This document shows, one piece after another, positions 3,641-40,689 of a stretch of 64,000 nucleotides of DNA; position 1 is the stretch's first letter, and each line of letters opens with the position of its first letter. The notes under the pieces are model-generated. The model worked only from the letters and a program-made list of their open reading frames with translations, was not told the DNA's origin and ran no database searches. A program made the position numbers and the translations under genes. Source of the DNA: Squalus acanthias (taxonomy: Eukaryota); the NCBI GenBank assembly GCA_030390025.1, contig CM059431.1, forward strand, positions 111,788,001 to 111,852,000. The letters are read 5' to 3'.

Positions 3641-4040
3641 TCTATAGTATGGAGACCTGAACTGTTCACAGTACTCCAAGTGTAATCTAACCAAGGTTCT
3701 ATACAAGCTTAACATAACTTCTGTGCTTTTCAATTCTATCCCTCTGGAAATGATCCCCAGTGCTTTGTTTGCTTTTTTTTATGGCAAAAGAACCAAAGGG
3801 GAGATGAGGAGATTTTTTTTTAACACAGTAAGTTGTTATGATCTGGAATGCACTGCCTGAAAGGGTGAAAGCAGATTCAATAGTAACTTTCAAAAGGGAA
3901 TTGGATAAATACTTGAAGGGGAAAAATTGCAGGGAAAGAGCAGTGGAGTAGGACTAATTGGATAGCTCTTTCAAAGAGCCGACACAGGCACAACGGGCCA
4001 AATGGCCTCCTTCCGTGCTGTATGATTCTATGATTCTATG
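3640..4040. mobile_element. CR1 3' fragment with inverted 5' part
   Basis: 3640-3785 is minus-strand CR1 ORF2; 3785-4040 is a plus-strand CR1 3' end with (attctatg)n tail. Confidence 0.65.
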
Positions 4041-6085: not shown

Positions 6086-6174
6086 TACTTCTCTGCTTCA
6101 CAATTTGCCAGATCATTTAACTATAAAAAATAATATAAAACAAGAGTATTATCTAAAGTAAGGACAGAAAGTAT

Positions 6175-7025: not shown

Positions 7026-9361
7026 GACTCTCCCTGTGCAATGCCATGGAAACTAGTAACATATTAAAATGCAATGTTTGCGTACGCTTCCTATCAATTT
7101 TTTTTTCATTATAAATTCCTATTATACATTTATAATGGAAATTGCCCCACTGGCAGGAGAGTGTAATTATAAAGTATAAGTTTAGATAGGCAGTTTCCAT
7201 TATACATGTTAAAATTCTTCTCTTCCCTTAAATTTCATTTTTGCATCTTTCTCTTTCTTCTCTTCTTCTTTCTTTTTGGATGGAAGGTGGTGGATAAAAG
7301 GTGAGGCGGGGTCAGGAGCTGCCAACGGCTGCAGGCTGCATTAGGGGTGGGATTGTGAGGAAAATTGTGGCCCTCAGCAGCTTATATCCCATCCCTTCCC
7401 CAATCTCCAAGCTTCCCCCAACCCCCTTTCACCCATTGCATTCCATACCTATTCATCTTCCCATGATCTCTTCCCCTCCCTACTATCCCATTGCTTCCAT
7501 CACTACCCCTACCTCTTCCCTTTTGAACAACCCTCTGCACTCCTGCCCCCTTGCACCACTGTGATTCACCTCTTCCTTCACCTTCCATCCACCCCTTACC
7601 ATTCCCATTGATTCCCCCCAAGGGCAAATGATGAGGCCAGAGGTCCCTTCAACCTTAAATTGTTTCTCTCATTCCCTCCCCCTCCTGGCCTCTCTGCCTA
7701 ATCTTTTTCCCCTCAAAGAGGTTTGCTTGCTCTCAAAATTCAATTTGTCTTTTAAAAATCAAATTAGAGTAAGAAAGGATCTATATGTTTCTCTTCTCTT
7801 TCATGGTGTTAGAAATTAGAACCTTATCTCACATGGGTAAGTGACTAGCATTGATCTTTTCTAACTGTCAGCAAAGACAGATGAGATAATTTGTTAGCTT
7901 TTTTGAAAATTGAGCTAACATTAAATGAAAGATTGTTTCTCACCCTTCTCTCTCTGATCCCAGACTTTCTTCCTCCCCTCTCTCATCAACCCTCGCTTCT
8001 TCTTCTCCCACACTTTCTTTGATCCCAGTCTCTCTCTGAGCTTCTACTACCCTCAGTCTCTCTTGCTCTTTCCATCAGTTTAATGCACTTTCCAAAAACT
8101 ATGACAATTGTGTAATCAGAACACTGTAATTTTATTGAAGTCTTCGTCACTTATACAGACCCTGTTGAAAAAAAAACTACTTAATATAAATTTTAGCTCA
8201 ATAAAGCTTTTGAAATTTGTCTACTGGTTTTCCAAAATTATTTTAAGAAAAGCTACTGACCAGAAATACTAAAAGCTAAAGAAAAATATTCCATAACTGA
8301 TTGCATTATTACAGCCACTAGAACACAGAGTTATTGTCTAATTGAAGAAAAATAAATTAATACTGGTTAGCTTTGATAAGAAAAGTATCTTAAACAGGTT
8401 GAGAAAGTGAAAGGTCTGTTCTGTTGTCTATGCCTGTGCATAACTGAAAAAAACTGGCTATCATGTATTTGGTAATTCCTACAAAACCTTTTAGAAGTGA
8501 ACAATTACCAGTTATCACTATATAATACTCTATTACATGATTAGCTGATATTGCTTTTTTTTTAAATTTGCTTGATTCAGTCGGCAGTTGTTGGACGAGT
8601 GGGTGTAGTTGCCTTTTTTTTTAAAGAAAGTCTACAAGTTTGAACACAAACTGGCAATTAGTTAGTCTACCAGCTACAACATGAAAAAGATGTTGATGAT
8701 ATCAATGACATTTTTTCATTAATTCTGCTGTAAGTGCTCTCAGAGAAGCTCTAACTCACTCTGATTACATGCACTATTTAGCATGGAAATGTGGAGAGGT
8801 AGGGAACGATACAATGACGAGTAAGAGGATTATGAAAAATTAAAATTTGAGCCACAGAAATCATGAGCACCACGGTGCATGTGGATTCTACTGGCCAGTC
8901 TTGCAGTGCGGTTTATTTTTGCTGGTTTCAAGGGAACTGCAATGTGCTATATTTAAACAACGTATGTTGTGTAATCACCCTGAAAGCTCTGGATCTGACA
9001 GTGACAAATGCTGTCTGTAAACCACTATTGAATGTTTCATATGTGTTGTATAAATAAAGAATGTACCTTTTGTTTGTCTTCAAAGATTCATCAAACATCT
9101 GAAAAAAAAGGTCACTGCAATACTACTCTCAAAAATGTGCTTGAAAATTAACAGTTTCAATGAACAGCATATTTAAATTCATTTAAATAAACCAAACTGT
9201 ATTCAATTTAAGAGTGCAATGCACCAAAATTTCAAACAAACAAGTGTGCCTTGTTACAACTGATTTACATATTCCAACAATGAACCTCATTTAATATAAA
9301 CTGACATTCAGTTCAAGTGAAGCACACTGCTTCAGACCTCATCACAGCCTTAAACCAGACA

Positions 9362-9572
9362 TGATGCGGAGATGCCGGTGTTGGACTGGGGTGGACAAAA
9401 ATGAGAAGTCGCACAACACCAGGTTATAGTCCAACAGTTTTATTTGAAATCACAAGCTTTCGGAGCTTACACCCCTTCTCACTTCACCTGAGGAAGGGGT
9501 GTAAGCTCCGAAAGCTTGTGATTTCAAATAAAACTGTTGGACTATAACCTGGTGTTGTGCGACTTCTCATTT
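9362..9572. mobile_element. Penelope-like (family A) palindromic unit with hammerhead
   Basis: Inverted arms 9397-9478 and 9493-9574; TSD ttaaaccagacatga at 9350-9364 and 9573-9587; hammerhead at 9484-9521. Confidence 0.85.
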
Positions 9573-9589
9573 TTAAACCAGACATGAAC

Positions 9590-15681: not shown

Positions 15682-15943
15682 TGTTGAGGCTGCCACGAAA
15701 CACGAATAGAGGCTGAATACATATGTGGAAAACAAGAAACTTTTATTCACTGCATGGCACACAAAATGGCTGAGAGAGCTGCTCCCAGAATTCTCTGGGA
15801 AAACTCCCAGAATTCTCTGGGTAAAACCTGAGGCCCCGCCCCCTTCTGCCTTAAAGGTAATGTGCCTTAAAGGGGAAGGTGCTGGAAATTTGTCCACAGA
15901 CGGAAGAGTGGATTATGCCTGTTTTAGGTGGCAATCCGCCACA
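15682..15943 (-). repeat. 3' LTR
   Basis: About 8 mismatches versus 19814-20075 (counted by eye). Confidence 0.95.
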
Positions 15944-16119: not shown

Positions 16120-19100
16120 CTACTCCCCGGGCTCCGAGTGTGCTGGCTTGAGTCGGTCCACCGACACTTTTTCGGTCCTGTCGCCCACTTGCAGGGTGAA
16201 AAATTTGTCCCCAGCCTGTAGCACCTTGTAGGGCCCGTCGTACGGGGGTTGAAGGGGTCCGCGGTGGGCGTCGTGCCGGACGAAAACAAACTGTGCCTGG
16301 TGCAGGCTTAGTAGGACGTGTGAGGTGGATTCGCCGTGTCGGGCAATGGGCACCGGGGCGAACTGCAGCGCCGGTGAGGCGAAGTCGTGGCGTTGCTGGT
16401 CGGCTGACCAGGGTGTCGTGGCGGTGGGCAGGAACTCGCCGGGTACGCGCAGCGGCTGACCGTACACGAGCTCTGCTGCCGATGCGTGGAGGCCTTCTTT
16501 AACCGCGGTGCGCAGGCCGAGGAGGACCCACGGAAGTCGGTCGGTCCAGGCACCGTCTTGGAGGCTGGCTCGAAGAGATGCCTTCAAGGATCTGTGGAAC
16601 CGCTCACACAGTCCGTTGGCTTGGGGGTGGTACGCTGTGGTGCGGTGGATGGTCACCCCGAGATTGCGTGCGACGGCGGTCCAGAGTTCAGAGGTAAATT
16701 GCGGACCTCTGTCCGACGTCATGTCGGAGGGGACGCCGAACCGTGCGACCCAGGTGCTGACGAAGGCTCTGGCGATGTCGGTGGTGGTGGTAGAGGTCAG
16801 TGGAATTGCCTCAGGCCAGCGTGTGGTGCGGTCAACGATGGTCAGCAAATGCGTGTGGCCTTGCGACGGCGGCAGGGGCCCGACGATGTCCACGTGGATG
16901 TGGTCGAATCTCCGCGAGGGGACGGTAAACTCCTCGAGGGGTGCTTTCGTGTGTTGCTGTACCTTGGCACGTTGGCAGGATAGGCAGGAGTTGGCCCAAG
17001 TACGCACATCCTTGCGAAGGCTGCGCCAGACAAAGCGGTTGGCTACCAATTTGATGGATGCGCGGGCGCCGGGGTGGGAGAGGTTGTGGAGAATGTCGAA
17101 TAGCTGGCGGCGCCAGGACGCTGGCACGATGGGCCGAGGTTGACATAGGGATATGTCGCACTTGACCGTGACTGCGGTCGGGCCACAGGCGACGTCGGCC
17201 AGGCATAGCACTGGTAGGTTGGTGGGTGCGGAGAGCAGATCTGGGTCGGTGATCTGGTCTGCTGCGAGTTGAGCGTAATCGACTGCTAGGTGTGCAGCGT
17301 GGATGGCGGGGCGGGAGAGGCAGTCGGCTACCACAATGTCTCGGCCGGAGACGTGTTGGATGTCCGTGGTGAACTCGGACACTGCCGCGAGCTGGCGCTG
17401 CTGCCTGGCGGACCAGGGGTCGGTTGTCTTTGCCATTGCGAATGTCAGGGGCTTGTGGTCGACAAACGCAGTGAAGGGGTGGCCCTCAAGCAAAAACCGG
17501 AAATGGCGGACCGCCAGGAGCAGCGCGAGGAGCTCGCGGTCGAAGGTGCTGTACTTGACCTCCGGGGGGCGTAGTTGGCGGCTGAAGAAGGCAAGTGGTT
17601 GCCAGGCGCCGTCGACCCACTGCTCATACACGGCGCCGACCACGTGGTCGGAGGCGTCCGTGGTGAGCGCTACCCTGGCATTGGGCCGTGGGTGCGCGAG
17701 CAGGGTGGCGTTGGCGAGTGTGGTCTTGGTGGAATCGAAGGCGGCGGATGCGTCTGCTGTCCATTCGACCGCCATCTTGCCGCTCCTGCCCCGGAGGGCT
17801 TCATACAGGGGCCTCATGAGGGACGCCGCTTTGGGGATGAAGCGGTTATAGAAATTCACCATCCCGAGGAACTCCTGGAGGCCTTTGATGGTGGTGGGGC
17901 GGGGAAATTGTTGGACGGCCTGCACCTTGGTGGGCAGGGGAATGGCCCCAGCATGGTTGATGTGGTGGCCGAGGAAGTCGATCTTGTCCAGGCCGAACTG
18001 GCATTTGGCTGGGCTGAGGATGAGCCCGTGGTCGCTGAGGCGCCCGAACAGGATGCGAAGGTGTTCGAGGTGTTCCTGCTTGGAGGAACTGGCTACCAGG
18101 ATGTCGTCCAGGTAGACGAACAGGAACTTCAGGTACCGAAGGACCGAGTCCATGAGCCGTTGGAATGCCTGGGCCGCGTTTTTGAGGCCGAAGGGCATCC
18201 GCAGGAACTCGAACAGGCCGAAGGGGGTGATTACGGCCGTCTTGGGGACTTCCGCGGGGTGGACGGGGACTTGGTGGTAGCCGCGCACCAGGTCGACCTT
18301 GGAAAAGACTGAGCGGCCGGCCAGTCTAGCCGAGAAGTCCTGAATGTGCGGCACGGGGTACCGATCAGGGGTGGTGGCGTCATTGAGGCGGCGGTAATCC
18401 CCGCAGGGGCGCCAACCTCCGCCTGGTTTGGGGGCGATGTGGAGTGGGGAGGCCCAGGGACTGTTGGAGCGGCGGATGATGCCGAGCTGTTCCATGGTGG
18501 CAAACTCGGTCCGCGCGATCTCCAGTTTGGCCGGGTCCAGCCTGCGGGCGTGGGCATACACTGGGGGGCCTGTGGTGGGGATGAAGTGTTCCACCCCGTG
18601 TTTGGCGGCCTCCGTGGAGAAGGTCGGATTGGTAAGGGCCGGGAATTCAGCCAGGAGTGCCGAGTAGTCATCCGTGGCCCGGGCATGACACTGTGACGCC
18701 GTGTCGACGGGTTGACGGGGGGCCATGGCGCCCAGGATGGGGGACATGGTGTTCATGTCCATGAGGCGGTGACGAGGGATGTCTACCAGTAGGCCATGGG
18801 CGCACAGGAAATCTGCGCCGATGAGGGGGGAGAGCACCTTGGCAGTGATGAACTCCCATCGGTAGCGGTGACCAGCGAGGTCGAGGGTGACTGGTGACTG
18901 TCCGGGTGCCATACGTCCGGATTTCCGAGCCGTTAGCAGCAGCCAGCGCTGGTCCTTTTGGATGTCGAGGGAGGAGGCCGGGATGATGCTGTGCTGAGCC
19001 CCAGTGTCGCACAGGAACCGGTGGCCGGTTTTGTCATCCGTGACGAACAGCAGGGAGCCCGCGTGGCCCACGGCCATCGCGGGGGCTGGAACGGGGGCGG

Positions 19101-19773
19101 ACTTGAAAGAGCAGGGAGGTGTGCACCGTTGTGCCCTGGCGCCGAACCGTGCGTGGTAGTAACAGTGGCCCGGGTTAGTGGGGCGTGAAGGCCCCGTGGG
19201 CCTGGTGACAGGCCCTTGTGGCCGCGTGCTGGATGGTGAGGGGCGCGCCCAGGCATTGGCTGCCAGGTCCGGAGTGACGTCGCGGCTGGAGTGAGCGGAC
19301 AGCAGCTTGTCGGCCTCATCGGCCAGGGCTTCCAGGTTCGTGAGGCCGGACGCCACGATCGCTGGGCGGATGCTGAGAGGGAGCTTGCGGATGAACAGCG
19401 TGCGGAAGAGGGATCCGGGTGGGCTCTCGTCGGTGAGGGAGAGCATGTGGGAGAGGAGGTCTGACGGTGAGGCATCACCGAGGCCTGGAAGGTCGAGGAG
19501 GTGGCAGTTTCGCTGATATGCCGAGGCCATAAATTTTTTAAGGAGCGCTGTTCTGAGATGTGCGTACTTGCCTTCCTCTGGTGGGTTCTGCAGCGTTGTC
19601 CAAACCTTGGAAACTGCGGGGCTACTGAGTGATGTGACGAGATAGTCGTACTTCGTCCCATCTGTGGTGATATTTCGCAGCCGGAAGCGAGATTCAGCTT
19701 GGAGAAACCAGGCTTCGGGCTGGTTTTCCCAAAACTCCGGCAGTTTCACGGAAACTGCGTTCGTGTCCGCCAT
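16120..19773 (-). CDS. gag-pol polyprotein, 1217 aa (Gag-PR-RT-RNase H-IN)
   Basis: KLPEFW gag N-terminus, CYYH-x9-C-x3-C, LCDTGA, YLDD, TDASD/DRELLA/DHKPL, HHCC, HVD/SDRG/CER, GPY motif. Confidence 0.92.
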   Translation of the reverse strand: MADTNAVSVKLPEFWENQPEAWFLQAESRFRLRNITTDGTKYDYLVTSLSSPAVSKVWTTLQNPPEEGKYAHLRTALLKKFMASAYQRNCHLLDLPGLGDASPSDLLSHMLSLTDESPPGSLFRTLFIRKLPLSIRPAIVASGLTNLEALADEADKLLSAHSSRDVTPDLAANAWARPSPSSTRPQGPVTRPTGPSRPTNPGHCYYHARFGARAQRCTPPCSFKSAPVPAPAMAVGHAGSLLFVTDDKTGHRFLCDTGAQHSIIPASSLDIQKDQRWLLLTARKSGRMAPGQSPVTLDLAGHRYRWEFITAKVLSPLIGADFLCAHGLLVDIPRHRLMDMNTMSPILGAMAPRQPVDTASQCHARATDDYSALLAEFPALTNPTFSTEAAKHGVEHFIPTTGPPVYAHARRLDPAKLEIARTEFATMEQLGIIRRSNSPWASPLHIAPKPGGGWRPCGDYRRLNDATTPDRYPVPHIQDFSARLAGRSVFSKVDLVRGYHQVPVHPAEVPKTAVITPFGLFEFLRMPFGLKNAAQAFQRLMDSVLRYLKFLFVYLDDILVASSSKQEHLEHLRILFGRLSDHGLILSPAKCQFGLDKIDFLGHHINHAGAIPLPTKVQAVQQFPRPTTIKGLQEFLGMVNFYNRFIPKAASLMRPLYEALRGRSGKMAVEWTADASAAFDSTKTTLANATLLAHPRPNARVALTTDASDHVVGAVYEQWVDGAWQPLAFFSRQLRPPEVKYSTFDRELLALLLAVRHFRFLLEGHPFTAFVDHKPLTFAMAKTTDPWSARQQRQLAAVSEFTTDIQHVSGRDIVVADCLSRPAIHAAHLAVDYAQLAADQITDPDLLSAPTNLPVLCLADVACGPTAVTVKCDISLCQPRPIVPASWRRQLFDILHNLSHPGARASIKLVANRFVWRSLRKDVRTWANSCLSCQRAKVQQHTKAPLEEFTVPSRRFDHIHVDIVGPLPPSQGHTHLLTIVDRTTRWPEAIPLTSTTTTDIARAFVSTWVARFGVPSDMTSDRGPQFTSELWTAVARNLGVTIHRTTAYHPQANGLCERFHRSLKASLRASLQDGAWTDRLPWVLLGLRTAVKEGLHASAAELVYGQPLRVPGEFLPTATTPWSADQQRHDFASPALQFAPVPIARHGESTSHVLLSLHQAQFVFVRHDAHRGPLQPPYDGPYKVLQAGDKFFTLQVGDRTEKVSVDRLKPAHSEPGE

Positions 19774-19798
19774 TGCAGTGCTCGGAATACGTTCTGAG

Positions 19799-19812
19799 CG
19801 TCGGGGTCACCA
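19799..19812 (-). promoter_or_regulatory. primer-binding site, tRNA-Trp
   Basis: TGGTGACCCCGACG, complementary to the tRNA-Trp 3' end (CGUCGGGGUCACCA), 1 nt after the 5' LTR. Confidence 0.85.
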
Positions 19813-19813
19813 A

Positions 19814-20075
19814 TGTTGAGGCTGCCGCGAAACACGAATGGAGGCTGAATCCATATGTGGAAAACAAGAAACTTTTATTCACTGCATGGCACACAAAATG
19901 GCTGAGAGAGCTGCTCCCAGAATTCTCTGGAAAAACTCCCAGAATTCTCTGGGTAAAACCTGAGGCCCCGCCCCCTTCTGCCTTAAAGGTAATGTGCCTT
20001 AAAGGGGAAGGTGCTGGAAATTTGTCCACAGACGGAAGAGTGGGTTATGCCCATTTTAGGTGGCGATCCGCCACA
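19814..20075 (-). repeat. 5' LTR
   Basis: Direct repeat of 15682-15943; AATAAA on minus strand. Confidence 0.95.
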
Positions 20076-20160: not shown

Positions 20161-21242
20161 TGACGGGATAATTACTAGTCCTAGCCCCTTTAGGGCTACC
20201 CCGGATCAGGCGTATTCCTCAGACGTTCACTTTCAACTAAAGTTTGAGGTAGCCGAATCCTAAAGACGCTTAATTGGGTCAAAAGGTCCGGACTATCTCT
20301 CCCGAAAGGAAAGGAACAACCTGAAGATGTTACCGTCCTCCAGATAGCACTTTCAATAAGTTTAGCTAGACTGTAACGTTCCGGATATTATGAGGGTCCG
20401 GAAATCTCCTCACCAAAGAGTGTACAGAAATTGAGTTCACAAGTTTAATAATTCTAAAAATATATAGATTTATTAAAGAACCAACATGTAATTTACAGTT
20501 GGTGAGTCAATCGCAACATTAACAGTTCCAAAAAGAGAAAGTTTACACTCTTATTATCAGAGAACCTTACTCTCAAATCTTAAATTCGCTACAGTTTTAC
20601 AGTTCTTGAAGTTCTATTCGGGATATCCGCCAAAATCAAATACCTTTGATCCCCGAGGTACAAAGAGTTGGAGACTTACAGAGCCACCTCTGAAGCCGAG
20701 AATCGCTTTGCCCCTTTAAAGCGAGTCTACTATCCCATTTGAGAGTTCAATATTTATACACTTTTCCAGTGGTATTTCCTTTAAGGTTTTCTGCTGAGGT
20801 AAGCTAATTATCTCTAGTCATTTTTCTGCTGACCCCTGCAATTCTTACAGTCGCCTCAGCTGGTAGCATTACAGAATTATGTCTCTTCTCTAGGGGTTCT
20901 AAGTTTACCATAAAAAAACGGTGTAACGGCAGTTGTGTTTTACTTGATGTCATTTTTACGAAAGCAGATGTTTCTTACTTTACAAAGTGTAAGTTAGAAC
21001 ACATTAACCAGGGTGAACCATTGTTTCATTCCGAAAGGTTCAGCCTTTAACCTTCTGTTTCAATAAGGTTATTGATTCAGTGTCAACAACTATCTTATCT
21101 CTATAGCCAGAATGCTTTCACAGCTTTTTCATAGTTAGGTTTCTAGATTTCCAAACCCAGTTTGTCATGTTTTAATAAGGCCAGAATTCTTTCATAGAAT
21201 GGTGTATTTTTCTGAATAGGTTATATGGCTTATTCCTTCACA
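20161..21242 (-). mobile_element. long solo LTR, retrovirus-like
   Basis: TG...CA ends; TSD aggc at 20157-20160 and 21243-21246 splitting the CR1 RT; minus-strand TATAAATA near 20751-20758 and AATAAA near 20469-20474. Confidence 0.7.
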
Positions 21243-21844
21243 AGGCTTCCCTCCTCGCTATTTACCACTCCACCAATTTTCGTGTCATCTGCGAACTTAC
21301 TGATCATACCTCCTACATTCATATCTAAATCATTAATGTACACTACAAACAGCAAGAGATCCAGCACCGATCCCTGCGGTACACCACTGGACACAGGCTT
21401 CCAGTCACAAAAACAACCTTCGACTATCACCTTCTGCCTCCTGCCACTAAACCAATTTTGGATCCAATGTGCCAAATTGCCCTGGATCCCATGGGCTCTT
21501 ACCTTCTTGACCAGTCTCCCATGTGGGACTTTGTCAAAAGCCTTACTGAAGTCCATGTAGACTACATCAACTGCACTACCCTCATCCACACACCTAGTCA
21601 GCCCCTCGAAAAATTCAATCAAATTGGTTAGACATGATCTCCCCCTGACAAAACCATGCTGACTATCCTTGATTAATCCTTGCCTCTCTAAGTGGAGACT
21701 AATTCTGTCCCTCAGAATTTTTTCCAATAATTTTCCTACCACTGATGTTAGGTTCACTGGCCTGTAATTCCCTGGTTTATCCCTACTACGCTTCTTGAAT
21801 AATGGTACTATGTTAGCTGTCCTCCAGTCCTCTGGCACCTCCCT

Positions 21845-21940
21845 ACTTCACCTGAGGAAGGGGCGATCGATAGCTCCGAAAGCTTGTGATTTCAAATAAA
21901 ACTGTTGGACTATAACCTGGTGTTGTGTGACCTCTCAATT
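21845..21940 (+). mobile_element. Penelope family A terminal fragment with hammerhead (21848-21889)
   Basis: CUGAGGA-A-GGGGC-loop-GCUCC-GAAAGCUU/GUGA; replaces a few codons of CR1 ORF2. Confidence 0.8.
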
Positions 21941-24127
21941 TTGAAAATTTGTGTCAGAGCCCCTGCAATCTCCTCCCTTGCCTCACACAGCAGCCTGGGA
22001 TACATCTTGTCTGGGCCTGGGGATTTATCCACTTTTAAGCCCGCTAAAACCGCTAGTACCTCCTCCCTCTCAATACTAATTTGTTCAAGTATATCACAAT
22101 CCCCCTGCCTGATTTCTATGTCTGCATCGTCCTTCTCCATAGTGAACACAGATGCAAAATATTTATTTAAAACCTCACCCACATCTTCCGGCTCTACACA
22201 CAGATTGCCACTTTGGTCCCTAATGGGCCCTACTCTTTCCCTGGTTATCCTCTTGCCCTTAATATACTTATAAAACACCTTGGGATTTTCCTTTATTTTG
22301 CCCGCCAGTGTTTTTTCATGCCCCCTCTTCACTCTCCTAATTTCTTTTTTTTAAGTACCCCCCTGCACTTTCTATACTCCTCTAGGGCTTCCACTGTTTT
22401 TAGACCTTTGTATCTGCCAAAAGCCTCCCTTTTTTTCCTAATCCATTCTTGTATATCCCTTGACATCCAGGGTTCCCTGGGCTTGTTGGTCCCACCCTTG
22501 ACCTTTACGGAAACATGTTGGCGTTGTACTCTCTCTATTTCCTTTCTGAAAGACTCCCACTGCTCTGATGTGGATTTTCCTACAAGTAGCTGATCCCAGT
22601 CCACTTTGGCCAGATCCTGCCTTATCATATTAAAATCGGCCTTCCCCCAATTTAGAACCTTTATTTCCGGTCCATCTTTGTCCTTTTCCATGACTACCTT
22701 AAATCTCACCGAATTATGGTCACTGTCACCAAAATGCTCTCCTACCGACACTTCTACCACTTGCCCGGCTACATTCCCTAGAATTAGGTCCAGTACCGCC
22801 CCCTCTCTTGTAGGACTTTCTACATGCTAGCTCAAAAAGCTCTCCTGAATGCACTTTAAGAATTCCGCACCCTCTAAGCCTTTCACACTCTGACTATCCC
22901 AGTTAATATTGGGGAAATTGAAATCCCCTACTATTATTACCCTATTATTTCTACACTTCTCTGAGATTTGCCGACATATCTGTTCCTCTATCTCCCCCTG
23001 ACTGTTTGGGGGCCTATAGTACACTCCCAGAAAAGTGCTTGCCCCCTTTTTGTTTTTAAGTTCTTCCCATATGGCCTCATTAGAGGAACCTGCTAAGATA
23101 TCATCCCTCCTTACAGCAGTAATTGACTCCTTGATTAATATTGCGACACCCCCTCCTCTTTTACACCCCCATCTGTCTCGCCTGAAGATTCTATACCCCG
23201 GAATATTGAGCTGCCAGTCCTGCCCCTCCCTCAACCATGTCTCTGTGATAGCAACAATATCATACTCCCATGTGTTCATCAACACCTTCAATTCATCTGC
23301 CTTACTCGCAAGACTCCTTGCATTAAAATAAATGCCATCCAGCCTTGCCATACTCCCTTGTGCCGTTACATATTTGCTCTGCCTTCCAGGCTGACTTGTT
23401 TTTTCCTCTATATTTGGCTGTGCATCACCCCCTACTATAGCTCCACTCTGTATCCCATTCCCCTGCCAAGTTAGTTTAAACCCCCCCCAACAGTACCAGA
23501 AAACCTCCTCGCAAGGATGTTGGTCCCGTTCCGGTTCAGGTGCAACCCGTCCGACTTGTACAGGTCCCACCTTCCCCAGAAGCAGACCCAGTGATCCAGG
23601 AAACTAAAGCGCTCCCTCCTGCACCAACTCTTTAGCCACGCATTCATCTGCTCTATCCTCCTATGCCTATAATTACTAGCACGTGGCACCGGGAGTAATC
23701 CAGAGATTACAACCTTTGAGGTCCTGCTTTTTAATCTGCTACCTAGCTCCCTAAATTCTTGTTGCAGGACCTCATCCCTCTTTCTGCCCATGTCGTTGGT
23801 ACCAATGTGAACCACGACCTCTGACTGTTCGCCCTCCTCCTTCAGAATGCCCTGCAGCTGTTCACTGACATCCTTGACCCTGGCACCAGGGAGGCAACAT
23901 ACCTCCCTGGAATTACTTCTGCGGCCACAGAAACGTCTACCTGTTCCCCTTACGATAGAATCCCCTATCACTATTGCTCTCCCACTCTTTTTCCTCCCCT
24001 CCTGTGCAGCTGAGCCACTCGTAGTGCCACAGACTTGGCTCTTGCTGCATTCCCCTGAGAAACCATCTCCCCCAGCAGTATCCAAAACGGAAAATCTGTT
24101 GGAGAGGGATATACTGTCTTGAATATG

Positions 24128-24270
24128 CCTATATGCATCTCTTCACTTCACCTGATGAAGGAGCAGCGCTCCGAAAGCTTGTGATTTCAAATAAAACTGT
24201 TGGACTATAACCTGGTGTTGTGCGACTTCTCACATTTGTCCACCCCAGTGCAACACCGGCATCTCCACAT
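24128..24270 (+). mobile_element. Penelope family A terminal unit
   Basis: Flanked by the tcttgaatat duplication; contains hammerhead motif. Confidence 0.8.
24148..24184 (+). ncRNA. minimal type I hammerhead ribozyme motif (family A)
   Basis: UCAC-CUGAUGA-A-GGAGC-AGC-GCUCC-GAAA-GC-UU/GUGA; perfect core. Confidence 0.85.
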
Positions 24271-25049
24271 CTTGAATATACTCAATGACGGCGCCTCCAC
24301 AGCCCTCTGGGGTAGAGAATTCCAAAGATTCACCACTCTCTGAGTGAAGAAATTTCTCCTCATCTCAGTCCTAAATGGCCGACCCCTTAATCTGAGACTG
24401 TGACCCCTGGTTCTACACGCCACAGCCAGGGGAAACATCCTCCCAGCATCTACCCTGTGAAGCCTTGTAAGAATTTTGTATGTTTCAATGAGATCACCTC
24501 TCATTCTTCTAAACTCTAGAGAATATATGTCTAGTCTACTCAATCTCTCCTCATAGGGCAATCCCCCCATCCCAGGAACCAGTCTGGTGAACCTTCGTTG
24601 CACTCCCTCTATGGCAAGTATATCCTTCCTTAGGTAAGGAGACCAAAACTGTACACAATACTCCAGGTGTGGTCTCACTAGGGTCCTATATAATTGCAGT
24701 AAGACGTCTTTACTCTTATACTCAAATTCTCTTGTAATAAAGGCCAACATACCATTTGCTTTCCTAATTGTTTGCTGTACCTGCATGTTAACTTTCAGTG
24801 ATTCGTGTACAAGGACACCCAGGTCCCTCTGAACAACATTTCCCAATCTCTCACCATTTAAAAAATACTCTGCTTTTCTATTTTTCCTACCAAAGTGGAT
24901 AACTTCACATTTCTCCACATTATATTCCATTTGCCATGTTCTTGCACACTCACTTAGCCTGTCTATATCCCCTTGAATTTCCTTGCATCCTCCTCACAAC
25001 TTACATTCCCACTCAGCTTTGTATCATCAGCAAACTTGGATATATTACA

Positions 25050-25671
25050 AAAAATGCTGGAAATACTCAGCAGGTCAGGCAGCATCTGTAGAGAGAGAAA
25101 CAGAGTTTTTTCTTTTTTCTTTTCTTTTTTAACGTTTCAGGTCGATGACCCTTCATCAGAACTGGAAAAAGTTGGAGATGTAACAGGTTTTTAAGCAAGT
25201 GTAGGGGCAGGGAGAAGGGGGAGGGGAGGAAAGAACAAAAAGGAAGGTCTGTGATAGGATGGAAGGCAGGAGAGTTTAAGAGAGTAAAAGGATGATGGTG
25301 CAAGGCAAAAGGAGATGGTAATGGGACAAGTTAAGAGATAAGTTCCATGGGGCAAGAACAGGCCGATCTGAGAGAATGGAGTGCTGCAAGTTCAGAGGGA
25401 GGTAGGTTGGAGTGGGTAAGGGGAGCAGAGAAATTGAGACGGCCGATGTCACGCCGGCAGTTTGCAATGAAAAGATCTAGAGAGGTTAAGAGGCCAGAGG
25501 GAGGGGTCCAGGTAGAACAAGAATTCTGAAAACGGGAGAAAGGGTCAGCTGTGCGGGGGAAGACTCCTGGCCAACTCAGTTTCTCTCTCTATAGACGCTG
25601 CCTGACCTGCTGAGTATTTCCAACGTTTTCTGTTTTTATTTCAGATTTCCAGCATCCGCAGTATTTTGCTT
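25050..25671. mobile_element. Penelope family B inverted unit
   Basis: Inverted termini; 14-bp TSD ttggatatattaca at 25036-25049 and 25672-25685; hammerhead 25129-25163 on minus strand. Confidence 0.8.
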
Positions 25672-26230
25672 TTGGATATATTACATTTGGTCCCCTCATC
25701 CAAATCATTGATGTAGATTGTGAATAGCTGAGGCCCAAGCACTGATCCTTGTGGTACCCCACTAGTTACAGCCTGCCAACCCGAAAATAACCCGTTTATT
25801 CCTACTCTCTGTTTTCTGTCCATTAACCAATCCTCAATCCATGCTAGTATGTTACCCCCAATCCCATGAGCTCTAATTTTGTTTAATAACCTCTTGTGTG
25901 GCATCTTATCGAATGCCTTCTGAAAATACAAATACACCACATCCACTGGTTCCCCCTTATCTATTCTGCTAGTTACAACCTCAAAAAACAGATTTGTCAA
26001 ACACGATTTCCCTTTCATAAATCCATAAATCCATGCTGACTCTGCCCAATCCTATTATTATTTTCTAAGTGCCCTGTTAACACGTCCTTAATAATAGATT
26101 CTAGCATTTTCCTACTACTGATGTCAGGCTAACTGCTCTGTGGTTCTCCGTTTTCTCTCTCCCTTCTTTCTTAAATAGTGGGGTTACATTTGCCACCTTC
26201 CAATCCGCGGGAACTGTTCTAGAATCTATG

Positions 26231-27123: not shown

Positions 27124-29954
27124 ATGGAATTTTGGAAAATGACAACCAATGCATTCACTATCTCTATCTCTATGCTTATCTCTTCTAAAAGTTAAGTAGC
27201 CTGGAATATTTAGTTCCCAACCCTGGCCACTTTGCAACCACGTCTCCATTATGGCTATTAGATCAAACCTGTTAATTTCTATCTGCGCTATTCATTCATC
27301 TATTTTTTTGCGAATGCTTCGCGCATTCAGATATAGCGCCTTTAGCTTTGACTTATTTCTATTTTTCGCTGATGTCACCTTAGTCACTGATGCCTTATTA
27401 CCTTTGTTACTCTCTCTGTCCCTTTCTGACCCACTCTGCTTATTTTTACCCAAAACTCTACTCTGCTCTAGAGCCTTGACATTTCTTTCGCTGCTTTTAA
27501 ATTTACTCTTTCCTGAATCCTCGCACCCTCCCTTCATTAGTTTAAAGCCCTGTCTACTGCCCCAGTTATTCGCTTTGCCAGGATACTGGTTCCAGCCCGG
27601 TTTAAGTGGAGCCCGTCCCAATGGAACAGCTCCCTCTTTCCCCAGTACCGGTGCCAGTGTCCCATGAACATGAAACCCCTTCCTCCCACACCACTCTTTG
27701 AGCCACGCACTTAAACCTCTAATCTGTTTGTCCCTATGCCAATTTGCGTGTGGCTCAGGTAACAATCCAGAGATGACTACCTTTGAGGTTTTGCTTTTTA
27801 ATTTGGATCCTAGCTCCTCAAACTCCCTCAGCAGAACCTCATTCCTAGTTCTACCTATGTCGTTGGTTCCTACGTGGAACACGACAGCTGGATCCTCCCA
27901 CTCCAAGTTCTTCTCCAGCCGCGAGGAGATGTCTTTAACCCTGGCACCGGGCAGGCAACACAACCTTCAGAACTCTCGGTCGCGGCTGCAGAGAACAGTA
28001 TCTATCCCCCTGACTATACTGTCCCCTACCACAACTACATTCCCTTTCACTCCTCCCGCTTGAATGGCCTCCTGCACCATGGTGCCATGGTCAGCTTGCT
28101 CATCCATCCTGCAGGCTTTTCCCTCATCCACACAGGCAGCAAGAACCTCATACCTGTTGGACAAGGGCAAAGGCTGAGGCTCCTCCAGCACGGCACCTGG
28201 GGTCCCCTTACCTGCCTGAGTTACAGTCACACCCTCCTGTCCCTGACCACTAACCAGACCTGTACCACTACCTAACCTAAGGGGTGTGACTGCCTCCTGG
28301 ATCAAAGTGTCCATGTAACTCTCCCCATCCCTGTGCCCCGCAATGTCTGCACCTCAGACTCCAGCTCAAAAACTCTGCGCTGAAGTTTCTCAAGAAGCAG
28401 GCACTTACTGCAAATGTGGTTGTCCGGGATCATAATGCTCTCCACAAACTCCCACATGCTGCAGTTGCGGCACACCACCTGCACTGCCATCCCTATATGA
28501 CCTTGTTTTATTGAATTAAATTTAATTACATTTGTAATTAGGTAACTTAGTTTACAGTGTAGTTTCTTGACTACTTACTTGATCTAGATTAAGTTAAGGG
28601 TACTGAAATTAAATATCTACCTGTAACACAAAGCTGCTTTTGTATGTGGAGACACATGACCACGGGTCAATTTGTAAGTGTGAGAGATTGAGTGCTTGCA
28701 CATGACAGCATAAATTACAAGTTATAAAGTTGTATGGATAGATACTGGGGTATAGTTGCCGTTGTATATTCTGCATTAAGTAAAATGTTTCTCCCCCACC
28801 ACCCCCCGCAGCTCCAGACCAAACTAACCAATTAAAACAATCCCTATAGTCACAGACAGAACCCATATTTTTTTCACTGTCTTGTGTAGAGGTTGTATCA
28901 ATCATGACATCATTGCATGTCACATTACTTTAATCCAAGCTAGGTCTGCCTCACAAAAGCAAAATACAGTGGCCGCAGGAAATCTGAAATATAAACAGAA
29001 AATGCTGGAAATACTCAGCAGGTCGGGCAGCATCTGTGGAGAGAGAAACAGAGTTAACATTTCAGGTGGATGACCTTTCGTCAGAACTGGAAAAATTTAG
29101 AGATGTAACAGCAGGTATAGAGGTAGGGAAAGGAGGGAGGGGAGGAAAGAATAAAAGGGAAGGTCTGTGATAGGGTGGAAGGCAGGCGAGATTAAATGAC
29201 AAAATGGATGATGGTGCAAGGCAAAAGGAAATGGTAATGGGACAGGTAAAGAAACAAAAGATGGGTCTAGAAAAGGTGTAAACGGGAACGGCAGAATCAT
29301 CAACAGCTGCCCTCCGAAAAAATGGGGGCAAAGGTTATGGTCTGAAATTGTTGAACCCAATGTTGAGCCCGGAAGGCTGTAAATTGCCTAATCGAAAGAT
29401 GAGGTGCTGTTCCTCAAGCTTACATTGAGCTTTATTGGAACAGTGTAGGAGCCCGAGGACAGAGAGATCAGAGTGGGAGTGGAGCGGAGAATTAACGTGA
29501 CAGGTGACCGGAAGCTCGAGGTCATGCTTGCAGGCTGAACAAGGTGTTCCACAAAGCGGTCACCCAATCTGCCTTTGCTCTCCCCAATGTAGAGGAGACC
29601 ACATCGTGAGCAGAAAGTATATCATACTAAATTGAAAGAAGTCCAAGTAAATCGCTGTTTCACCTGGAAGGAGTGTTTAGGGCCCTGGAAGGTGGAAAGG
29701 GAGAAGGTAAAAGGGCTGGTGTTGAATCTTCTGCGCTTGCACGGGAAGGTGCCGTGGGAAGGGAAGGGGGTGTTGGGGGTGATTGAGGAGTGGACCAGGG
29801 TGTTGCGGAGGGAGCGGTTCCTTCGGAATGCTGAAAGGGGAGGGAAGGAGAAGATGTTTTTGTTGGTGGGATCACGCTGGAGGTGGCAGAAATGGCAGAG
29901 GATGATCCGTTGAATGTGAAGGCTGATGGGGTGGAAGGTGAGAACAAGGGGAGG

Positions 29955-32630
29955 ACCAAGAAATTGAGATGGAAATAGATAAAAGAATATGAGAGTAAAT
30001 TAGCAAGAGACATAAAAACAGATTGTAAACATTTCTATAGGTATGTAAATAGGAAGAAATTAGTAAAAGTAAACATGGGCCCATTAGAGGCAGAGACAGG
30101 AGAAATTATAATGGGCAATAAGGAAATGGCAGAGACATTAAACAAATACTTCATATCTGTCTTCACGGTAGAAGACACAAGAAACATTCCGGAAATAATG
30201 GGGAACCAAGGGTCTAGAGAGAATGAGGAACTTAAAGAAATCAGTATAAGTAAAGACATAGTACTGGAGAAATTAATGGGACTAAGTGGCGACAAATCCC
30301 CTGGAGCTGACGACCTGCATCCTAGAGCTTTAAAAGAGGTAGCTGCAGAGATAGTGGATGCACTGGTATTAATCTTCCAGAATTCCCTAGATTCTACAAC
30401 AGTCCCAATGATTGGAAGGTAGCAAACATAACCCTGCTATTTAAGAAAGGAGGAAGAGAAAAAACGGGGAACTGTAGGCCAGTTAGCCTGACATCAGTAG
30501 TAGGCAAAATGCTAGAATCTATTATTAGGGACCTGGTTTCAGGGCACTTAGAAAATCGTATTATGATTAGGCAGAGTCAACATGGTTTTATGAAAGGGAA
30601 GTCATGTTTGACAAATCTGTTAGAGTTTTTTGAAGCTGTAACTAGTAGGATTGATAAGAGGGAACCAGTGGATGTAGTGTATTTGGATTTTCAAAAAGCA
30701 TTCGATAAGGTGCCACACAAGAGGTTATTACACAAAATTAGGACGCATGGGATTGGGGGTAATATATTAGCATGGATTGAGGATTGTTTAATGGACAGAA
30801 AACAGAGTGTAGGAATAAACGGGACTTTTCAGGTTGGCAGGCTGTAACTAGAGGGGTACCGCAAGGATCAGTGCTTGGGGCCTCAGCTATTTACAATCTA
30901 TATTAATGACTTGGATGAAGGGACTGAGTGTAATGTATCCAAGTTTGCTGATGATACAAAGTTAGGTGGGAAAGTAAGCTGTGAGGAGGACTCAGAGAGG
31001 CTGCAGAGAGATATAGACAGGTTGACTGAGTGGGCAAGAACATGGTAAATGGAATACAATGTGGGGAAGTGTGAAATTATCCACATTGGTAGGAAAAACA
31101 AAAAAGCAGAATATTTTTTGAATGGTGAGTGACTGGGAAATGTTTGCATTCAGAGGGACCTGGGTGTCCTTGTACATGAATCACAGAAAGTTAACATGTA
31201 GGTACAGTAAGCAATTAGGAAAGCAAATGGTATATTAGCTTTTGTTACAAAGGGATTAGAGTATAAGAGTAAAGAAGTCTTACTACAATTATACAGTGCA
31301 TTGGTGAGGCCACACCTGGAGTACTGTGTACAGTTCTGGTCTCCTTACCTAAGGAAAGACATACTTGCCTTAGAGGGAGTGCAACAAAGGTTCACCAGAC
31401 TGGTTCCTGGGATGAGGGGATTGCCCTATGAGAAGATAATGGCCCAAAAATTCGTGAGGAAGCCTTCGTGCGAGGGTAAGGCTTCCCCGCGATCTCTCAC
31501 TGCGCGTTGGCTTTTTCAGTTCCAGCTCGCACGAACTTGATGTTCTGGACAGCTGCTGTGCTGGGCTTGCGTATCCCACAGGCGTAGTTAATTCGTGCGA
31601 GCTGTGGGATCACGTGACTCAGTTAGAGCCAATGGCAGCACACCATCTTCCATTCATAACTTTCACATAAGTGCTGTGAAAGCTATGAATACTATAGCCC
31701 CCCAAAAGACCAGCTAAACCTCAATTAAATTTTAAAAAAAACCATCACATTAATAAAATAAGTATAGTTAAATAAATTAACCATTTTAAATAAAAAATTA
31801 AATTTTTGAAAAAATTTAAAATCTTTTAAAAAGTTATAAAAATAAACTTACCTGTCTTTAAAGTCTCTAAAAAAGATATACCTGTTAAAAAAAATTCAAA
31901 ATAATACTTAATTCACTACTTACCTTGTTAAAAGTGGGTCTTACTCCTCCTTTTTTTATGTGTAAAATCTTCCATACTTACCTGCGCGTTGAAACCACTA
32001 AGTGCACTGCATGCGCGCAGCCTGTAGCGCGCACGCGGTTCACCTAGGAACCGCCCCCTTTTCCATTCACCAAGTGCCGGTTTTCAGCGCATGCGCAGTG
32101 CATGCAGAAAACCGGCAATTGGAGACAGAATACGCGAGAGTACACAGTGCGTACTCTCGCGTATCAACACAAATTTTTGGGCCATTGAGTAGACTAGGCC
32201 TATATTCCCTAGAGTTTAGAAGAATGAGAGGTGATCTAATTGAAACATACAAAATTCTTAAGGTGCTTGACAGGGTTAATGCTGAGAAAATGTTTCCCCT
32301 GGCTGGGGAATCTAGAACACTGGGTCACAGTCTCAGAATAAGGGGTTGGCCATTTAGGATTGAGATGAAGAGAAATTTCTTCACTCAAAGGGTTGTGAAT
32401 CTTTGGAATTTTCTACTCCAGAGAACTGTGGATGTTCAGTCGTTGAGTATTTTCAAGACAAAGGTTGATATATTTTTGGGAACTAAGGGAATTACGGGAC
32501 ATGGGGATAGTGCGGGAAGGTGGAATTGAGGTAGAAGATCAGCCATGATCTTATTGAATGGTGGAGCAGGCTCGAAGGGCCAAATTGCCGACTCCTGCTC
32601 CTATTTCTTACGTTCTTACGTTCTTATGCT
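29955..32630 (+). mobile_element. 5'-truncated CR1 with stop codons
   Basis: [36 protein letters not shown]; (ttcttacg)n tail. Confidence 0.85.
31441..32183. mobile_element. Harbinger-type MITE with AT-rich core
   Basis: TIRs ggcccaaaaatt / aatttttgggcc; inverted relative of 46543-47307 and 56060-56530. Confidence 0.7.
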
Positions 32631-33074
32631 TTATCGTGGTTCTGAGAGGGAGGGGAAGGGGTGAGTGCAGAAGTGCGCAAAATGGAACGGACTCAGTCGA
32701 GGGCCCTGTCAACCACAGTGGAGGGGAATCCTCGGTTGATGTCAAAGGAAGACATATCGGAAGCACTGATATCGTTAGAACAGACGCGACAGAGACAGAA
32801 AAACTGGGAGAATGGAATAGAGTCCTTACAGGAAGCGGGGTGGGAGGAAATGTAATCAAGGTAACTGTGGGAGTCAGCGGTCTCCCTTAACTGTGTTCCA
32901 ATTTTTTATTCTAATTTGTTCTCTCCCCTTCCTCTCCTGAAGGTGTTGACCAATTGGCCATTCTTCACATGTGAACCGAGACAATGAATGTTGACAGACT
33001 ATTCAACTGCAGAGGGAAACACAGTCAAACCCAATCCTGTTCTCACCTGATATGCGCACACACGTACTAATTTT

Positions 33075-37950: not shown

Positions 37951-38546
37951 GTAACCAAATATAGCAGTTAATTCACTCAATGTTTTTTGAGCATGTTTAC
38001 AGAATCACATGATATTATAAGTAATGCTAGAAATGGAATTAGAATTGGTCTGTCACTTGCTAAAAATATTCAAGACAAATCAGAATAAAGATCAAACAGC
38101 TGTCACTATGACATGCGCCTCTCTAAAGGAAAGGAAACATTAAGGATTGGGTGAAATTTGGAGTTGTATCCATTTTGCCCAATAACTTAAGCTGGCTATA
38201 TACCAAGTATAGCTAATCTTTCATAAAATAATTAAATATTTATGCAGAAGAATTTTAGAATATTTGCAGTGTTTATTATTTCAACTTTTATATAAAAAAA
38301 TATTTATACAAAAGGGAAAGTTACAAGACAGCAGAATATCTAAGCAATTAATCCATCTTAACCCAGAACCTGACCAGTTTACTTTTCATAAATTTGTTCT
38401 TAGGCTGCTTGCAAGACTGCATTTAAATCTCATCCCTAAATGCCCTGAAGCAATTATTTTGTGTGTACAAATGAGCGTCTTGCTGGGTCACTTCAGAGGG
38501 CATTAAGAGTCGACCACATCTTTTGTGTTTGAAATTGAGTTTGAAA

Positions 38547-38896
38547 ATGCCTGAGGAGAGGAATGCAGCTCTCAAGAACTGTGAATCAAAGGACACCAAA
38601 GGGCGGCAAGAAGCGGAGAAGGTTGAGGAAGGAGAGTTACTCCATTTACATCTACAAGGCGATGAAGCAGGTTCACCCCGACACTGGCATCTCTTCCAAG
38701 GCCATGAGCATCATGGATTCCTCTGTGAACGATATTTTCGAGTGGATCGCGGGGCGAGGCTTCCCGCCTGGCCCATTACAACAAGCGGCGTGCCATCAGC
38801 TCCCGGGAGATCCAGACCGCCGTGCGCCTGCTACTGGCCAAGCAGGCTGTGTCGGGAAGGACAAAGGCAGTGACCAAGTAGAGCAGCTCCAAGTAA
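38547..38896 (+). pseudogene. H2B: histone H2B pseudogene
   Basis: MPE start, [60 protein letters not shown] stop; frameshifts, deletions and a premature stop. Confidence 0.92.
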
Positions 38897-39762
38897 AACT
38901 TCGCAATGTACTGAAAAAACACCCATAGCTTTCATGCTGACTTTTTTCTGGTGCTGGTTCAGAAACTACCAGAGTTATTGAATTGAGTTTCACAGCTTGT
39001 CCCAGTTGAGGAGTTGAGTTGAACCCATGACCTCTAGATTGCTAGTCCAGTACTGTATCATACAGCACCCTTCAGATCTCTGTGTTGGGTGGGGGGAATA
39101 ACATCTATTGTAAATATATCCAGAATTCAAATGTTAATTTATTCATTTAAATGTATTGTCAGTGATGCGCCATTAATAAATATGGTTGTACAATTGTTGA
39201 GTTTAATTGGATTGCCCTCACTGCATTACATTAAGCAACAGCTTCAGCTAGCAAGGTCATTGATTAGAATTTCTCCTTAACAGGCAAAACATACAGATCC
39301 ACTCTCTGTAAAATGTTGCATGATACAACACACTTCCAAACACCATTCCACAGCAGTTTTACATGACACTGCCAGTCATTAGCATAGCCCCTGAAGTACA
39401 TCATTTTAGTATTGTTAAATTATCAGAATGCATTAGCAATTTAAAAAGATTCTGGGGCTGAGCTAAATTGTTAACACGCAAATGCACGATATAAGGTTTG
39501 AACACAATGCTGTCTGATCTGGCCTAACGTGTATACACTGCATTTTGAAAATGATTAATATAAGCACTTTTCTTTTCTTTCATCATTTGTTACTTTCCTT
39601 TTCTTTTTCTCCTCCTGTATTCTCCTTGGGCTGAGACGACCTGCTCCGAAGCCTCACACAATCCTGTAAAAAATGTGTTAGTGTGCCCAGAGTGACTTAC
39701 CTCCTGATTACCCCTCTCCACATGGCAAAGTGCTCAGCCTCTACGCAGTCCCTCTGTATGGG

Positions 39763-40590
39763 CAAATGTGAGAAGTCGCACAACACCAGGTTATAGTCCA
39801 ACAGTTTTATTTGAAATCACAAGCTTTCGGAGCGCTGCTCCTTCGTCAGGTGAAGTGAAGAGATGCATATAGGCACAGCATATATAGTCAGAGAACACTG
39901 CCAGATGATTACAGTTAATCTTTCCAACTGCCCTTTATCACACCTCGGCAGAGAGATAATCACGGCAATCAAAGGTGTGGATGGTGTCCAAACAGGTCAG
40001 TCAGGAAAACATTACATCAAAGACAATGAGGTGGGGTCACAAGGGGTCAAATGTGGCAGATGCTGGTGTCTGTATGGAAAACAAAAAACTTTTTTTGCTG
40101 GAAATCACAGCAGGTCCGGCCGCATCTGTGTAGAGAGAACAAGCCAACGACGACTCGAGTCTGGGTGACTCTACGTCAGGTGGGGTTACATGTAGCGTGA
40201 CAAGAACCCAAGATCCCGGTTCAGGCTGTCCTCATGGGTGCGGAACTTGGCTATCAGTTTCTGCTCGCCGATTTTGCGTTGTCGTGTGTCTCGAAGGCCG
40301 CCTTGGAGAACGCTTACCCGAAGATCGGAGGCTGAATGTCCTTGACTGCTGAAGTGTTCCCCGACTGGGAGGGAACACTCCTGCCTGGCGGTTAGAAAGA
40401 TTAACTGTAATCATCTGGCAGTGTTCTCTGACTATATATGCTGTGCCTATATACATCTCTTCACTTCACCTGACGAAGGAGCAGCGCTCCGAAAGCTTGT
40501 GATTTCAAATAAAACTGTTGGACGATAACCTGGTGTTGTGCGACTTCTCACATTTGTCCACCCCAGTCCAACACCGGCATCTCCACATCA
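39763..40590. mobile_element. Penelope family A element with inverted termini and GIY-YIG C-terminal remnant
   Basis: Arms 39763-39930 and 40391-40557; minus-strand SLPVGEHFSSQGHSASDLRVSVLQGG...EQKLIAKFRTHEDSLNRD; hammerheads 39817-39853 (-) and 40466-40502 (+); TSD cctct(g/a)tatggg. Confidence 0.85.
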
Positions 40591-40689
40591 TGGCCTCTAT
40601 ATGGGAGCACAGTGTACTCCTCTTGGGAAATCATGGGCACATACCTGTGTCCTACCATTAGTTATCCACACATTAAAAGTTATTCTCCA

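Follow-up and report, generated by a model that had tools for sequence, protein, structure and literature searches.

Minimal hammerhead ribozymes (min-HHRs) of metazoan Penelope-like elements (PLEs) were described in 2014 by Cervera and De la Pena (PMC4209133), in whose reported tests single motifs gave no cleavage in vitro and dimers gave low cleavage. PAc, a PLE of the Poseidon clade from Anolis carolinensis, carries its ribozyme in the terminal pseudo-LTR (pLTR), with the ORF starting inside the ribozyme and an optional tail just downstream of it, corresponding to the stretch between two internal start sites of the reverse transcriptase (RT). In the experiments described for Anolis, cleavage by the ribozyme required addition of the element's protein, no RNA-seq read ended at the ribozyme site, and ribozyme mutants left insertion in vitro unimpaired (PMC11167929). 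Neptune PLEs, as characterised in PMC8557442, have a C-terminal GIY-YIG domain, a CX2-5CxxC linker, 5' truncation, an inverted truncated copy at the 5' end and a tail of 30–40 bp at one end only; the same account describes Naiad PLEs as thriving without hammerheads. The Penelope pLTRs of the rotifer Adineta vaga are reported to be inverted, with target duplications of 8–10 bp, an optional tail, and a TATATATA box about 20 bp before an initiator-like (Inr-like) TCACT (PMC3846280), and the Drosophila promoter is given as TATA-less and internal (PMC2377424).

The window analysed here, a stretch of 64,000 nucleotides (64 kb) of DNA from the shark Squalus acanthias, carries two families of such motifs, A and B. 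Family A fits the min-HHR consensus as given in PMC4209133 (U-rich, NNN CUGANGAH G..C GAAAN N U H NNN, AU-rich); in the supplement of that paper, the lamprey motif has the same stem I strands and the turtle motif the same GCUU, and no shark or skate terms occur in the supplement as searched. Stem II, with 5 bp, is at the short end of the range described there. Its closing pair (10.1-11.1) is G-C in all family A copies, as in the min-HHR; family B differs in having G·U or A-U, and G·U closing is found also in the published coelacanth, Xenopus and cichlid motifs. The domain order, linker, 5' truncation, inverted copies and one-ended tail of Neptune elements recur in the window, which differs in holding no complete element or partial tandem. 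As in PAc, the ribozyme lies in the pLTR with an optional tail just downstream, and the tail matches the stretch between the two RT start sites. Unlike the ribozyme-embedded start of PAc, an ATG in the core of the copy at 24148 meets a stop after nine codons, and the other family A copies do not have that ATG. The inverted pLTRs, target duplications and optional tail of Adineta are similar here, as is its box followed by an initiator, although in PMC3846280, as far as consulted, that initiator is not related to the ribozyme or to the starts of short copies.

We conclude with high confidence that these are minimal type I hammerheads in the terminal repeats of two PLE families, likely of the Neptune clade, that in pairs, and assisted by protein, they likely cleave the RNA of the element itself, and that the solo copies are likely inert by-products.

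Results

Intact and damaged hammerhead motifs

An earlier note on this DNA had listed eleven motifs in the two families, and all of its sequences are present at the positions and on the strands that it gave; seven stand as intact copies and four (at 25129, 310, 29052 and 40140) are damaged. Eight places in the window matched a strict descriptor for the type I hammerhead (CUGANGA, stem II, GAAA, palindromic stem III, UH, stem I). Seven of these are the intact motifs, six belonging to family A (484-526 on the minus strand, 9484, 21848, 24148, 39817 on the minus strand, and 40466) and one to family B (5986). The eighth, at 59657, is a poor match and probably of chance origin. Over 100 dinucleotide shuffles the mean was 0.01 matches and the maximum 1. 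A looser scan for the core and stem II found nine places, every one a cited copy, adding 25129 and 29052; in 100 shuffles the mean was 0.11 and the maximum 2.

The catalytic core (CUGANGA ... GAAA ... UH) is kept in the seven intact copies and in 25129 and 29052, and is lost in 310 and 40140. Stem I has 4 bp, the extra A before position 10.1 is present in all nine aligned copies, and there is no loop III, the palindromic positions 15.2-16.2 reading AGCU in family A, ACGU in family B and, with a wobble, AUGU in 29052. When these nine copies (eight of them distinct) were aligned over the 11 named pairs, 98.9% of cells were paired, compared with 22–42% in slid-partner controls. Two-sided change was seen in 8 of the 11 pairs; almost all of it lies between families A and B and therefore amounts to about one event. 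Within families, changes are one-sided only, and loop II measures 3, 4, 8 or 9 nt. The cleavage triplets proposed earlier, CUU for family A and GUU for family B, are consistent with standard hammerhead numbering and are likewise predicted here. Rfam gave no match at gathering score in the window, and none at E ≤ 10 for 24050-24300; it does not model these motifs.

Contigs of other copies supplied variants of the family A motif. Among the 40 of 47 variant rows listed, those inside the motif are U to C at H17, one stem I base and insertions in loop II, and none falls in CUGANGA or GAAA. At H17 (40498 in the window) C makes up 28–29% of the depth in two DNA runs, but its share is 5% in X16, which has the same organism code, and 2% in X21, from a different organism, the last two being contigs whose RNA nature is only guessed. 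The lower share there could reflect different mixes of subfamilies or the loss of better-cut CUC copies.

Attachment to Penelope-like elements

The motifs had been assigned to the minimal, dimer-type hammerheads of PLEs, and this is supported for both families, each of which is tied to PLE coding remnants. Motifs of A and B lie downstream of, and on the same strand as, the ends of PLE ORFs (40386-39759 and 29960-28953, both minus strand), and both families are the 3' ends, or pseudo-LTRs, of PLEs. On the family A side, 40186-40386 (minus) encodes the last 66 codons of the ORF, corresponding to the end of the GIY-YIG domain. The ORF end at 40386-40189 (minus) shares 92% identity with P0002, an RT protein of 643 aa from a shark that has RVT_1 together with DKG, YIDD, CX4CxxC and GIY..YIG-like motifs, and the Pfam GIY-YIG domain (PF01541) was found in 2 of the 32 matches to the family A ORF. 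The family B remnant gave 17 matches, mostly from sharks and rays, at 59–78% identity; among these P0044 has RVT_1 and PF01541, and the window's own fragment matches PF01541 weakly (E=0.04). A single ORF with a PLE-type RT and, at its C-terminus, a GIY-YIG domain is thereby seen through the fragments and the close relatives P0002, P0018, P0043 and P0044. P0002 is 32–35% identical to three B-side relatives, and A and B are therefore distinct families. The linker is of the CX4CxxC form on both sides, reading CKRRRCNTC in the family B remnant of the window and CHSNLCKTC in P0002, to which family A is related; judged from this motif alone, which also occurs in Nematis, both families likely belong to the Neptune clade.

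Contigs of other copies agree with this attachment: they extend the ORF past 40390 (37 in X1, 29 in X5), and others end at 40591 with unrelated flanks beyond (63 loose ends in X5, agreement 0.37). The window contains truncated copies only, with neither a full-length PLE nor an intact ORF set between direct pLTRs in a partial tandem. DNA patterns of family A had no match in the metagenome and viral contigs searched. The closest named proteins to the PLE remnants come from sharks and rays. Pieces of the PLE ORF also occur in several host proteins annotated in sharks and rays (XRCC5, septin 5a, FAM210B, isoforms of follistatin-related protein 5 and others), where they are probably mis-predicted or exonised repeat segments.

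Family A insertions

Most family A copies are 60–210 nt long and have no coding sequence. The motif at 24148-24184 (plus strand; predicted cut after 24180, CUU^G) is part of a solo, 5'-truncated PLE end at 24126-24274 (plus) that consists of the ribozyme, about 60 nt and a tail; it lies inside a CR1 LINE remnant and has a 10-bp target duplication (24117-24126 / 24270-24279). The other solo copy, of 99 nt (21845-21943), carries the hammerhead at 21848-21889 (plus; loop II of 8 nt) and begins at an initiator-like A; a search for a target duplication around it found none. The CR1-type LINE at 21230-24142 (minus) comprises a GDSL esterase ORF1 with endonuclease and RT pieces, and the family A ends at 21845 and 24126 are in or beside it.

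The remaining family A motifs are in fold-backs. That at 484-526 (minus), of a subfamily with a long loop II (9 nt), belongs to an insertion at 395-650 with a tailed copy on the minus strand and a short untailed copy on the plus strand (592-650), the latter starting within 2 nt of the scissile bond; a 12-bp duplication is present at 384-395 / 644-655. The motif at 9484-9521 (plus) sits in a near-perfect, head-to-head fold-back (9360-9574) with a one-sided tail and a 15-bp duplication at 9350-9364 / 9573-9587, in which stem II is predicted to be unformed (P=0.0); its plus copy begins at an initiator-like A (9481, with microhomology of ∼2 nt). The largest fold-back, 39759-40592, combines a hammerhead at 39817-39853 (minus), downstream of the PLE ORF end and 3' UTR, with one at 40466-40502 (plus) in an inverted, tailed partner copy (40387-40592), and is flanked by a 12-bp duplication with one mismatch (39751-39762 / 40594-40605).

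In the window as a whole there are five fold-back insertions (395-650, 9360-9574, 25047-25676, 39759-40592 and 62578-62742), all with the tail on one arm only. Target duplications of 10–15 bp surround 6 of 11 insertion units whose boundaries were set by eye (scores 9–15, the best of 200 random controls scoring 8).

Family B insertions

The only intact family B motif, at 5986-6022 (plus; predicted cut after 6018, GUU^A), lies in a 3' end (5566-6086, plus) that is inverted relative to its own ORF remnant at 5097-5540 (minus), which includes both GIY-YIG and the CX4CxxC linker. At 5972-5987 (plus) there is a CTAAC resembling a branch point, with a stretch of pyrimidines that ends in CAG, the AG being bases 1-2 of stem I. 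In Drosophila virilis an intron end is also reported to map to the 5' end of helix I (PMC4209133); given the short spacing, the sequence here may be due to chance.

A 5'-truncated PLE at 28953-29960 (minus) has, on one strand, an ORF remnant (29951-29347), 3' UTR, hammerhead and tail. This hammerhead, at 29052-29088 (minus), had been described as a mutated B copy; the core is kept, and the damage consists of a C·C mismatch in stem II and a UG in stem III. The copy at 25129-25163 (minus), by contrast with its earlier listing as intact, is broken by a 23-nt A-rich insert (25108-25130) lying between the cleavage triplet and the 3' strand of stem I. It forms the minus copy of a fold-back at 25047-25676, which has a 14-bp duplication, a minus-strand piece from the N-terminal part of the ORF (25558-25349) and a plus copy (25573-25674) whose first base is the one directly after the scissile bond. 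The motif at 310-346 is, as had been noted, a mutated B copy; it is on the minus strand, with G8 changed to A (CUGACAA), in a short copy (245-346) whose start coincides exactly with base 1 of stem I, an initiator-like A. One further fold-back, 62578-62742, absent from the earlier note, retains only the 3' half of the hammerhead and has a 14-bp duplication. Other family B remnants are devoid of a ribozyme: an internal RT-thumb piece at 32627-32887 (minus), and a small inverted piece with a tail at 3327-3643.

A B-like end nested in family A

The motif at 40140-40180, previously taken for another mutated B copy, is instead a third, B-related sequence built into family A. It is on the minus strand, with A9, GAAA and stem I lost. 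The dead PLE end of which it is part (40042-40178, minus; broken core, hairpin and tail) is placed just behind the family A stop codon, begins at the core, aligns with the B 3' end, tail included, and is flanked by a 13-bp direct repeat with one mismatch (40178-40190 / 40029-40041). Contigs bridge 39998-40164, 40112-40217 and 40166-40294 with 9–13 differences from the window, and because of these differences the nested end must be present in other family A copies as well. A decayed, independent B insertion is ruled out, since contigs of other copies bridge both borders. The simplest reading is that of an old B-like insertion into a family A ancestor, which would then have been amplified as a passenger. 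The nested end folds as a plain hairpin and, as it has no GAAA or stem I, cannot act as a partner for cleavage.

Promoter-like motifs and the start points of copies

In family A, a TATA-like box (40433-40439) stands 30 nt before an initiator-like TCACTTC, giving a predicted pLTR promoter at 40433-40467 (plus) whose initiator-like A (40463) is 3 nt before stem I; this 3-nt spacing holds in two subfamilies with different spacers. In family B (5986), TTAAAAA is found 31 nt before an initiator-like A that is itself the first base of stem I. Both families thus have a TATA-like box 30–32 nt before an initiator-like base that precedes stem I by 3 nt (A) or 0 nt (B). The pairing of box and initiator, in a pattern widened after family B was seen, occurs at 14 of 127,900 window positions, five of them at these ribozymes. 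The same motifs have been described in Adineta pLTRs (PMC3846280).

The 15 starts of A and B copies in the window include three at the initiator base (346, 9481 and 21845) and two at the scissile bond (25573 exactly, 592-594 within 2 nt). Contig joints were also collected, at least 25 distinct ones (15 of 62 rows and 12 of 40 rows, two shared). Among the joints listed, once restarts at the junction of the stretch itself (40386-40396) are set aside, 20 restarts fall in 40397-40592: three at 40463, one at 40499, five at 40554-40559, where the tail starts, and 11 elsewhere. The chance of 3 of 20 restarts at any one base is P ∼0.03. Two joints are near the scissile bond, 40542 to 40499 and 40498 to 40466, the latter leaving at 40498.

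It is conceivable, if somewhat doubtful, that truncated copies record RNA ends, the ribozyme lying at the very 5' end of the transcript, in which case starts at the initiator would derive from uncut RNA and starts at the scissile bond from cut RNA. The pattern could be such a trace of cleavage, on small numbers and with the initiator idea formed post hoc. The subfamilies diverge just upstream of 40463, where alignments can break without truncation, and hairpins that stall RT can also be a source of copy starts.

Folding and the proposed cleavage mechanism

The motif anatomy, the same-strand site behind the end of the RT/GIY-YIG gene and the structure of fold-backs, tails and duplications were read directly from the window, and from them we infer the following mechanism. 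Transcripts of a tandem master copy would begin at the TATA/initiator pair just ahead of the ribozyme in the upstream repeat, pass through the gene and continue into the downstream repeat. As loop III is missing, the core cannot be closed within one monomer; a double hammerhead would form from two same-family motifs joined by stems I and III (4+4+4 bp), and it would cut after CUU (A) or GUU (B) to leave 2',3'-cyclic phosphate and 5'-OH ends. The RT of the element would then have two start sites a short way downstream of the ribozyme, producing tailed and untailed 3' ends, and would usually stop early, leaving scattered ends of 60–1000 nt that carry the motif passively. With neither a full-length nor a tandem element in the window, the dimer partner is a putative one.

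Heterodimers of A and B are ruled out, as the cross-family strands form only 1 of 8 pairs in stem I and 2 of 4 in stem III. For the family A motif at 24148, the computed energy of the double hammerhead is −19.1 kcal/mol, compared with −10.0 for each of two monomers and a cofold minimum of −28.9; for the family B motif at 5986 it is −8.5 kcal/mol, compared with twice −5.9. By these nearest-neighbour energies, which leave core contacts unscored, the double hammerhead is predicted not to be favoured unaided. The most likely role would be the protein-aided processing of the element's own tandem transcript.

Genomic setting

The window is repeat-rich vertebrate DNA. Pfam, run on 53 of the 64 stop-to-stop frames of at least 120 aa, a length at which short exons would escape, found only retroelement domains (LINE and gypsy-type), a histone fragment and one weak, sub-threshold zinc finger. 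The gypsy-type sequences include an open 1228-aa pol frame at 16120-19806 (minus; RT, RNase H, integrase and DUF7041) in a GC-rich block, with 262-bp LTR-like repeats (15682-15943 / 19814-20075) that are 97% identical, apparently a young insertion, and a second, broken element at 57577-59641 (plus) with RT, RNase H and integrase in two frames. The histone fragment, at 38545-38928 (plus), is frameshifted, H2B-like and probably a pseudogene (Pfam Histone, E=1.4e-7).

Discussion

Several other readings of these motifs can be weighed against a role in the PLE life cycle. It might be argued that they are chance matches in repetitive DNA, given that Rfam offers no match and that copies of one repeat are not independent; with 0.01 matches per shuffle, and with two unrelated stem sequences fitting the same 11-pair structure at the known site of PLE ribozymes, we consider this extremely improbable. 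Another view would have family A be a non-autonomous retrozyme or SINE in its own right, propagated through circular RNA, and not a PLE end. The short, non-coding nature of most A copies would suit it, as would the non-LTR retrozymes reported from the sole chondrichthyan genome sampled (bioRxiv 10.64898/2026.07.22.740005). It is nevertheless very unlikely: the window has no tandem array of non-coding hammerhead units, the 5' ends differ among copies, and one A copy runs from the PLE ORF end through the UTR to the ribozyme, with contigs extending the ORF. ARAGORN found no tRNA, and thus no tRNA-derived SINE head. The earlier note had further proposed that many host transcripts could carry self-cleavage sites, so that dispersed copies would shape host RNA. 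A density of seven intact motifs in 64 kb speaks for this, as does the pair at 21848 and 24148, of the same family and strand and 2.3 kb apart, both of which one read-through RNA could hold. We nonetheless regard the proposal as unsupported and improbable. Just 7 of the 11 motifs listed earlier are intact, and the domain survey of 53 of the 64 long frames, which would miss short exons, found no host exon. Stem II has a predicted probability of 0.0 in 9484, 39817 and 40466 when the whole fold-back is folded, so that three of the six A copies are predicted to be locked in long hairpins, and of 0.03–0.05 in 21848 in its local context; solo copies have no dimer partner. That pair is the only one of the same family and strand within 3 kb, the other same-strand A spacings being 12.4, 16.3 and 39.3 kb, and single motifs gave no cleavage in the published tests (PMC4209133). 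An effect of cleavage on host RNA at some loci is possible.

The remaining alternative accepts the motifs as parts of PLEs and supposes that their cleavage is negligible or dispensable in vivo, the motif being a folded protein-binding or promoter-proximal element, or a hitch-hiker. Low activity in vitro even for dimers (in the assays of PMC4209133), and insertion in vitro without cleavage together with the lack of RNA-seq ends in Anolis (as described in PMC11167929), are what would be expected in that case; Craig et al. suggest that hammerheads may simply parasitize PLEs (PMC8557442), and copy starts upstream of or inside the motif outnumber those at the scissile bond, consistent with uncut templates. 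However, two families whose relatives share ∼34% protein identity keep the full core and all three stems while differing in their sequence, at H17 the common variant has C in place of U and never G among the variant rows listed, and the Anolis motif cleaves with protein and is rescued by the double change C3G/G8C in the mutants described (PMC11167929). Dispensable cleavage is thus a real possibility, but on balance an unlikely one, and we favour the protein-assisted cutting of the element's own RNA by paired motifs.

In the literature searched we found no prior example from a shark and no report of truncation at the cleavage site, though supplements or repeat databases may hold one. The present analysis adds two shark families to a class of ribozymes documented since 2014 in coelacanth, Xenopus, fishes and reptiles. 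The role of the PLE ribozyme could be tested cheaply in a genome rich in young PLE copies: copy starts peaking sharply at the scissile bond would demonstrate cleavage in vivo, and if intact copies within introns favoured one strand, this would reveal a cost for host transcripts. If the relation between copy starts and RNA ends proves true genome-wide, it would provide germ-line evidence of PLE min-HHR cleavage in vivo, readable from the DNA of any PLE-rich genome.
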